Origin: Escherichia coli
Lineage (GTDB): Bacteria; Pseudomonadota; Gammaproteobacteria; Enterobacterales; Enterobacteriaceae
Strand: one strand, 5' to 3'
Length of the DNA: 64,000 bases
NCBI RefSeq assembly: GCF_045037415.1
Contig: NZ_CP173438.1
How positions within the stretch are numbered: the first letter of the stretch is position 1; every line of letters begins with the position of its first letter. Shown piece by piece: positions 24,167 to 24,604 of the stretch. The notes below the pieces were generated by a model, which saw only the letters and a program-made list of their open reading frames with translations, was not told the origin of the DNA and ran no database searches. The position numbers and the translations under genes were made by a program.

Positions 24167-24604
24167 TCAGGCTGTTGTCTTTACTACTCTTAATTTATCA
24201 GTAAGCTCAATCAGATATGCTTTTGCTTTTTCGCGTGCTCGCCCCTCGAAAAGCATTATCCACTCATGTGTGTCGTCGATTGTTTGTAAACGGCCCTGGA
24301 GTTTTTTGCTGAAAGTCGACGTGAGCTGATAACCGTCGAGTTGATCAATTTGTTTACTCGATGTGATTTTTTTCCCGGCTGCTTTTTGAATGATAAGTTC
24401 AACGAAACCGATAACATTATTATCGTAATTATCGTAGAGAAATTCTTCATCTCCCTGAAATCCGAACAAATCTTCATGCTGGCTTAAGCGTTGAACAATT
24501 GACTCGGCATCAAAGGTCGAATCATCTTGCAGTTGTTCCTCTACCCAATTAATCAAATCCAGCCCTTCGTCGCTTTCGAGAGCCTCCATTCCCCATGAAC
24601 CCAT
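24167..24604 (-). CDS. DUF4259-like small acidic protein, function unknown
   Basis: 145-aa ORF starting MGSWGMEALESDEGLD (MGxWG N-terminal hallmark as I recall for DUF4259); SD aagga 7 nt upstream of ATG at 24604; AT-richer than flanking genes by eye. Confidence 0.7.
   Translation of the reverse strand: MGSWGMEALESDEGLDLINWVEEQLQDDSTFDAESIVQRLSQHEDLFGFQGDEEFLYDNYDNNVIGFVELIIQKAAGKKITSSKQIDQLDGYQLTSTFSKKLQGRLQTIDDTHEWIMLFEGRAREKAKAYLIELTDKLRVVKTTA

Follow-up and report, generated by a model that had tools for sequence, protein, structure and literature searches.

A DUF4259-family gene in the hycI–ascB intergenic region of Escherichia coli: a candidate orphan immunity gene adjacent to higA by accident

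The DUF4259 gene at the hyc-hydN-hypF locus

The stretch of Escherichia coli DNA analysed here (64,000 nt of NCBI assembly GCF_045037415.1, contig NZ_CP173438.1; hereafter the window, to which all coordinates refer unless another locus is named) covers the formate-hydrogenlyase region, in which hycE–hycI are followed by hydN–hypF and norW (the hyc-hydN-hypF locus). Within a small accessory islet of this region, the minus strand at 24167–24604 carries an open reading frame (ORF) for a mostly helical protein of 145 aa with the N-terminus MGSWG, which RefSeq annotates as hypothetical protein WP_113902028.1. On the evidence of the ORF itself, its RefSeq coding sequence (CDS), Pfam, a structural model and dN/dS, we assign this protein to the DUF4259 family and consider it a candidate orphan immunity protein. 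A first-pass annotation of the window had already picked out the ORF, its own Shine-Dalgarno sequence, its place in a small islet and its convergence with a HigA-like helix-turn-helix (HTH) gene, and in all these respects it was accurate. The Shine-Dalgarno sequence, AAGGA, read from the sequence at 24611–24615 (minus strand), precedes the ATG by 6 nt, and the stop codons of the two convergent genes, at 24075 and 24167, are 91 nt apart. The protein is acidic, with an isoelectric point (pI) of 4.45 and 28 D/E versus 15 K/R residues; its relatives in the DUF4259 family are likewise acidic throughout, with a median pI of 4.35.

Upstream region of the DUF4259 gene

An unusual inverted repeat with 10-bp arms had also been reported upstream of the ORF. 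The repeat is real and lies at 24652–24679, in the leader or promoter region of the gene, but its perfect arms (AGGTTCATCGC and GCGATGAACCT), separated by a 6-nt loop, are 11 nt long and thus slightly longer than reported. An inverted-repeat scan of the window found one such site versus none in 100 shuffles, and the repeat is kept in the alleles of three other E. coli loci (L004, L006 and L013). Substitutions found in divergent alleles preserve G·U pairs on the sense strand, which weakly favours an RNA hairpin over an operator (two of two internal transitions, with a chance probability p of roughly 0.25). The predicted fold of the leader RNA (−31.3 kcal/mol, z = −3.85) would permit a strong hairpin. 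The repeat may be either a 5′-leader RNA hairpin or an operator.

Directly upstream of the repeat, at 24681–24708 on the minus strand, a consensus scan picked up a weak sigma-70-like promoter candidate (TTGTCA, a 16-nt spacer, TATTTT), which has 9 of 12 consensus matches, no better than the expectation from shuffles; its sequence is conserved in the L004 allele. The predicted −10 element would put the start of transcription within the first arm of the repeat. We infer that the gene would be expressed from this predicted promoter and that the repeat would have a role.

Membership in the DUF4259 family

Against the Pfam family DUF4259 (PF14078), which the first-pass annotation had proposed, the protein itself scores weakly and below threshold (E = 0.014, 16.7 bits, residues 2–85 versus positions 1–78 of the 133-position model), and scans of the ORF with NCBIfam, PADLOC and PHROGs returned nothing meaningful. 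The assignment nevertheless stands, because transitive profile searches and matches between predicted structures lead to the same family as this weak direct match. NCBI gives the name DUF4259 to two E. coli alleles that are 89–96% identical to the window protein, P0054 and WP_000536065.1, the latter being the allele of strain E2348/69. A HMMER profile made from the E. coli alleles and a 62%-identical protein of Listeria costaricensis found only 54 matches in an exhaustive search of 1.8 billion representatives; the common full-length pattern of these relatives is MGxWG-ALESD-GLD ... FLYDN-A-ALAEL ... E-REIVELW, with a C-terminal helix. Of 25 relatives in the alignment, 20 match PF14078 at E ≤ 1e-3, the best of them at 3.2e-15, and 24 do so at E ≤ 0.1. 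When the family profile was run against a set of 5.8 billion proteins, 691 relatives were found, and the best 120 of 691 all carry PF14078. Giant repetitive proteins matched by the same profile (P0124 and similar) were rejected as low-complexity artefacts. Residues M1, G2, W4, G5, A8, L9, D12, G14 and L15 are invariant in alignments of 19 and of 26 sequences, in which D61 and E69 are near-invariant.

The AlphaFold2 model of the ORF product, calculated from the 19-sequence alignment, is confident (pLDDT 85, pTM 0.82). In a Foldseek search of AFDB50 with this model, about 40 of the top 50 matches are annotated as DUF4259 and are aligned end to end. DUF4259 models of AFDB superimpose on it over the full length with TM scores of 0.55–0.81, and the top matches reach TM values of up to 0.81–0.87; one example is an Isobaculum protein found in AFDB50 (TM 0.79/0.81, E = 2.4e-6). 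A sequence profile search of the PDB with the ORF family gave no match below E = 0.4. The E. coli ORF is a divergent member of DUF4259. It shares with the Pfam family the MGxWG...D..GLD N-terminus, a length of ~140–160 aa, the acidic helical character and the fold, but it falls in a small clade of divergent members (E. coli, Listeria costaricensis, Isobaculum and one Staphylococcus-like genome) in which the C-terminal half is shortened and lacks the PD-DG-REIVELW motif.

By far the closest relative outside E. coli is the Listeria costaricensis protein (62% identity; L003/L033, 6001–6444), which is encoded alone between the gene for a GH65 hydrolase and cdaA, and this relationship suggests cross-phylum transfer. 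The GC content is 41.8% in the DUF4259 gene and 34% in its upstream region versus 56% in hyc, and the corresponding GC3 values of the gene and of hyc are 0.40 and 0.68. The low GC and GC3 together with the 62%-identical Listeria protein point to a probable horizontal acquisition from a low-GC donor. A tblastn search with the protein found no match in 72,556 plasmids or in 50,697 phage records, and a Foldseek search with its model found none among the viral models of BFVD.

Genomic neighbourhoods in other bacteria

The neighbourhoods of DUF4259 genes were surveyed at 58 scored loci from other bacteria, using our own ORF calls; some of these loci are near-duplicates of one another. With gaps of at most 150 nt allowed between genes of a run, the DUF4259 gene is part of a run of at least four tight co-directional genes at 29 of the 58 loci and is solitary at 14. 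Pfam families were counted among the immediate neighbours and the next genes outward, with the 20 most frequent families listed. The commonest at positions ±1 (114 genes) were Imm-NTF2 (4), Imm68 (3), Imm51 (3), DUF2262 (3), Imm33 (2) and SUKH (2), and those at positions ±2 (106 genes) included SUFU (3), DUF7832 (3), DUF4253 (2), Imm33 (2), DUF4261 (2), DUF4274 (2) and Ank (2). No HTH, antitoxin or toxin family recurs among these 220 genes. The neighbour families are immunity domains of polymorphic-toxin systems as described by Zhang et al. 2012, who define both heterogeneous polyimmunity loci and polyimmunity proteins, typically without adjacent toxins (PMC3482391).

Loci of the polyimmunity type were observed at L014/L015, L018, L026–L028 and L029–L031. 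One of them (L014/L015) encodes P0159, a fusion of a DUF4259-like domain with Imm-NTF2 (E = 4.4e-18), in an array with Imm51, DUF6966, a 1,779-aa SUKH/SMI1_KNR4/SUFU/DUF4253/DUF4261 protein, UPF0167 and DUF4304. The DUF4259 gene of Fusobacterium lies inside ~13 kb of closely spaced genes that all point the same way, in the order DUF4274, DUF5713, Imm51, DUF4241, DUF4253, DUF1963, WGR, DUF2262, DUF4259, SUKH-3, UPF0167, Ank and SUFU, and a run in Lysinibacillus consists of SUFU, DUF6138 and Ank/DUF4274, followed by DUF4259. The gene for P0139, from a betaproteobacterial metagenome-assembled genome, has small ORFs around it, among them Imm33 and an RraB-like gene. Foldseek pointed to two further fusions, in which the DUF4259 domain is part of a Knr4/Smi1 protein (1,237 aa) and of a DUF2185 (= Imm33) protein (507 aa). 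Homologs of the E. coli gene do have a recurrent neighbourhood, but it is that of polyimmunity loci and not of HigA.

In Oscillibacter, Clostridium and Pseudoflavonifractor, giant ORFs of 1,482–1,865 aa start 3–93 nt downstream of the DUF4259 genes (L040, 6475–12069; L093, 6475–11991; L050, 6310–10755). These giant ORFs are similar to the 1,779-aa SUKH/SUFU/DUF4253 polyimmunity protein of L014.

A proposed role as an orphan immunity protein

Because the family recurs in polyimmunity loci and in fusions to Imm-NTF2, SUKH or DUF2185, we propose, with a probability of roughly 55%, that the E. coli DUF4259 protein is a stand-alone (orphan) immunity protein of a polymorphic-toxin system. The first-pass annotation had named an effector/immunity pair or a defence-related pair as possible roles; an immunity-type role is indeed the best supported, while the pairing with the HTH gene and the defence function are not supported. 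The cytoplasmic, acidic, helical protein would bind and neutralise a toxin domain that competitors inject, and the E. coli immunity gene would have no toxin gene of its own beside it. We infer that a toxin would be bound and neutralised in this way, and likewise what that toxin might be. A more specific version can be put forward only tentatively: DUF4259 would be an uncatalogued immunity family, and the E. coli allele an orphan from a low-GC Gram-positive donor that protects lineages such as ST131, ATCC 25922 and E2348/69 against a specific interbacterial toxin of the gut and is controlled in its expression by the inverted repeat.

Several points weigh against an immunity role. The argument for it is guilt by association only, and Zhang et al. 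2012 (PMC3482391) make no reference in their main text to DUF4259 or to a GxWG-type motif. No toxin gene lies beside the E. coli gene or beside any homolog examined. Recognised immunity families make up ~10–15% of the immediate neighbours, most of which have no Pfam match. The closest relatives, those of Listeria, Isobaculum and the Staphylococcus-like genome as well as P0150, are solitary among housekeeping genes, and the 14 solitary loci among the 58 surveyed count in the same direction. Finally, truncated alleles, and insertion sequence (IS) elements between the gene and its upstream region in E2348/69, both described below, mean that the gene is dispensable.

An immunity role would give PF14078 a testable candidate function, protection against interbacterial toxins, in a family about which the searchable literature says next to nothing. 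The gene varies between strains and is present in clinically important lineages, including ST131, so that it could affect competitive fitness in the gut. The practical impact will be modest until the cognate toxin is found.

Distribution and allelic variation in E. coli

Among 5,426 complete E. coli genomes, about 13% (725) carry the DUF4259 gene, with a median of one place per genome. The identity is at least 99% in 555 genomes, and 315 proteins fall into the largest cluster. ST131, ATCC 25922 and E2348/69 are among the main carriers. Truncated or frameshifted alleles of 82–115 aa are frequent in E. coli (P0043, P0076, P0097, P0110 and others), several of them occurring on multiple contigs, and the truncated alleles indicate that the gene has repeatedly become a pseudogene in some lineages. 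In E2348/69 (O127:H6; L013, 3501–6280), IS200C and ISEc13 have inserted between the upstream repeat and the gene, and there is no asc operon; in this enteropathogenic strain the gene is probably silenced. The window allele is full-length but contains an in-frame 9-bp tandem duplication at 24418–24435 (codons 57–62), where TACGATAAT is present twice and YDN is added to the protein. This duplication, absent from the L004 and E2348/69 alleles, sits within FLYDN, the most conserved motif of the family.

The limited distribution, the many truncated alleles on multiple contigs, the IS elements of E2348/69 and the duplication in the most conserved motif could all be understood if the gene were a hitch-hiking remnant, functionless in E. 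coli and slowly decaying in an indel-prone hot spot, as could the loss of the flanking higB, of the gene for a 251-aa protein and of the asc operon from the lineage of the window. Such a remnant is, however, hard to reconcile with the dN/dS of 0.24 found for groups of alleles with 9% nucleotide divergence; this value places the gene under purifying selection, and 12 of the 13 replacements lie in the C-terminal half. Moreover, the full-length ORF, the Shine-Dalgarno sequence and the repeat are intact in most carriers (see the 555 genomes and the 315-member cluster above), and the duplication in the window allele is in frame and maps to a low-confidence loop of the AlphaFold2 model. We regard decay of a functionless remnant as plausible but unlikely.

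It is likewise plausible but unlikely, with a slightly lower probability, that DUF4259 proteins have a cellular role other than immunity, for instance as an adaptor, a chaperone or a housekeeping regulator, the polyimmunity context being incidental or confined to one subfamily. The nearest relatives are indeed solitary by housekeeping genes (GH65/cdaA in Listeria; carbamate kinase; metG/TatD), and actinobacterial members have response regulators and biosynthetic genes nearby. DUF4259 was mentioned only once, and incidentally, in the literature searched; a DUF4259 gene is listed within a lanthipeptide cluster (PMC11672506), which would also suit a cellular role. However, no housekeeping neighbour recurs, the only themes that cross phyla are immunity-domain neighbours and fusions, and a housekeeping factor would not typically be spread so patchily over E. 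coli strains.

The islet and its relation to higA

At least eight configurations exist of the hycI–ascB intergenic region (window 23421–24880), which is an indel hot spot. Their building blocks are three independent cassettes, namely the gene for a 251–257-aa protein, higBA and the DUF4259 gene, in addition to repetitive extragenic palindromic (REP) sequences, IS elements and the loss or retention of ascGFB. In sister strains with the fuller arrangement, the order is hycI, the gene for the 251/257-aa protein, higB, higA, the convergent DUF4259 gene, ascB-ascF-ascG and hydN; such fuller forms, with asc retained, are found at L004 and L006. K-12 (L002) is empty, with a REP pair only. The other configurations include the 253-aa protein gene with higBA (L010), the 251-aa protein gene with higA (L011), higBA alone (L012), and higBA with the DUF4259 gene, IS200C and ISEc13 (E2348/69, L013). 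Alignment of the window and L004 to L010 and L012, which lack the DUF4259 gene, delimits its cassette, ~0.6 kb long, to approximately 24125–24715, between two REP halves that adjoin in strains without the gene.

The HTH gene that converges on the DUF4259 gene (23656–24075, plus strand; RefSeq CDS WP_000126294.1, 139 aa) is a full-length higA, and the description of it as HigA-like was well founded. Its product matches the PDB structure of HigA (5IFG_B) with E = 2.5e-35 over residues 9–138, is a full-length paralog of K-12 HigA, and has a C-terminal HTH (Pfam HTH_3, E = 1.1e-8). The higB toxin gene (PF09907) is found directly upstream of higA at L004, L010, L012 and L013 but is absent in the window, where higA is an orphan antitoxin gene, a neighbour and not a partner of the DUF4259 gene. 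By blastn, window position 23626 joins position 7010 of L004 and window position 23627 joins its position 5976. The 1,033-bp deletion at this junction (23626|23627) took the higB promoter and most of the 251-aa gene and left almost nothing of higB. HigA WP_000126294.1 is an identical protein across configurations, with a dN/dS of about 0.04 versus the L004 allele, and higA has possibly been retained without the toxin gene for anti-addiction or cross-regulation.

The adjacency of the DUF4259 gene and higA is an accident of insertion and deletion, and the two genes do not form a module. That they might constitute a functional two-gene unit, either a new toxin–antitoxin pair or an effector–immunity pair, had been suggested by the first-pass annotation, and it is true that nearly all E. 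coli carriers have the DUF4259 gene at a single chromosomal site, that it lies beside higA in every inspected locus and that both genes have low GC. Such a unit is nonetheless very improbable, for the partner of HigA is HigB, whose gene precedes higA in sister strains and has been deleted here. The independence of the two genes follows from five observations. First, the identical HigA is found without a DUF4259 gene at L010–L012. Second, the DUF4259 cassette is a separate REP-flanked indel. Third, the higB/251-aa segment is present, at least partially, in 1,808 of the 5,426 complete genomes versus 725 for the DUF4259 gene. Fourth, when the ±6 kb around 62 DUF4259 loci of other bacteria (Firmicutes, Bacteroidota, Actinobacteria, Fusobacteria and Proteobacteria) were searched by tblastn, HigA had no match even at E ≤ 10, and HigB and the 251-aa protein had chance-level matches only (E > 1). 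Fifth, the palindrome of the higB promoter, GGTGTTTACA-TAT-TGTGAACACC, is unlike the upstream repeat of the DUF4259 gene (AGGTTCATCGC), so that a HigA operator shared by the two was rejected. In addition, the DUF4259 gene and higA are not co-transcribed because they are convergent, whereas the adjacent genes of type II toxin–antitoxin pairs are co-transcribed on one strand and usually overlap or lie close together, and no HTH family recurs among the neighbours of the 58 loci surveyed.

In the history that we propose for the islet, the low-GC cassette of ~0.6 kb would have entered E. coli self-contained, with its ribosome-binding site, putative promoter and inverted repeat, and would have landed in the REP-rich hycI–ascB hot spot, beside but independent of higBA. 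Later deletions of higB and of the asc operon would then have made higA and the DUF4259 gene look paired. The locus may serve as a cautionary case, in that an apparent gene pair is what remains, at an indel hot spot, of three cassettes that are independent of one another.

A part in anti-phage defence, or a phage-derived anti-defence function, is scarcely credible: the gene does sit in an accessory islet beside a toxin–antitoxin gene, and such islets often hold defence genes, but the protein matches no PADLOC or PHROGs family, nothing in the phage and plasmid records by tblastn and nothing in BFVD, and no defence-system genes recur among the neighbours of the 58 loci.

Several smaller features complete the islet. 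A 61-aa 'hypothetical protein' encoded upstream of higA (23445–23630, plus strand) was considered as a toxin and rejected: blastn and the gene map of L004, where the full gene occupies 6418–7173, identify it as the deletion stump of the gene for the 251–257-aa signal-peptide protein. No Pfam or NCBIfam family corresponds to this protein at full length. On the other side of the DUF4259 gene, what remains after the deletion of ascGFB is a REP half together with ~57 bp from the 3′ end of ascB (24719–24801, by blastn to K-12 L002 9441–9359). The 76 bp that follow (24802–24877), between this remnant and the conserved hydN upstream sequence, aligned to none of K-12, L004, L006 and L007. A perfect palindrome with 14-nt arms (ATGTCATCGACACT/AGTGTCGATGACAT), stronger than the repeat of the ORF, lies at 24897–24924, ~95 nt upstream of hydN, and was also picked up by the terminator scan. 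It was rejected as a part of the islet, being conserved hydN upstream sequence that is found in K-12 with one mismatch, and is probably a regulatory site of the hydN–hypF operon.

Comparison with known systems

Compared with the HigBA system of E. coli K-12 (5IFG), the sister strains have a conventional arrangement, in which higB precedes higA with the 4-nt overlap typical of an operon. The window, in contrast, lacks higB and its promoter, which leaves an orphan antitoxin, and the DUF4259 gene stands outside this system.

Like the orphan immunity genes known as orphan cdiI or rhsI and those directed against the type VI secretion systems (T6SS) of gut bacteria, the E. coli DUF4259 gene is stand-alone, effector-less, strain-variable and apparently horizontally acquired. 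Described orphan immunity genes are usually recognised because they are homologous to an immunity gene whose effector partner is known, or by their position downstream of a cdi, rhs or T6SS locus. The DUF4259 gene differs from them in having neither such homology nor a cdi, rhs or T6SS locus upstream.

In comparison with the polyimmunity systems of Zhang et al. 2012 (PMC3482391), the E. coli gene is a single isolated cassette outside any array. Its relatives in other bacteria, however, share with those systems the co-directional arrays of immunity genes, the fusions of immunity domains, the small size and cytoplasmic nature of the proteins, and the absence of an adjacent toxin.

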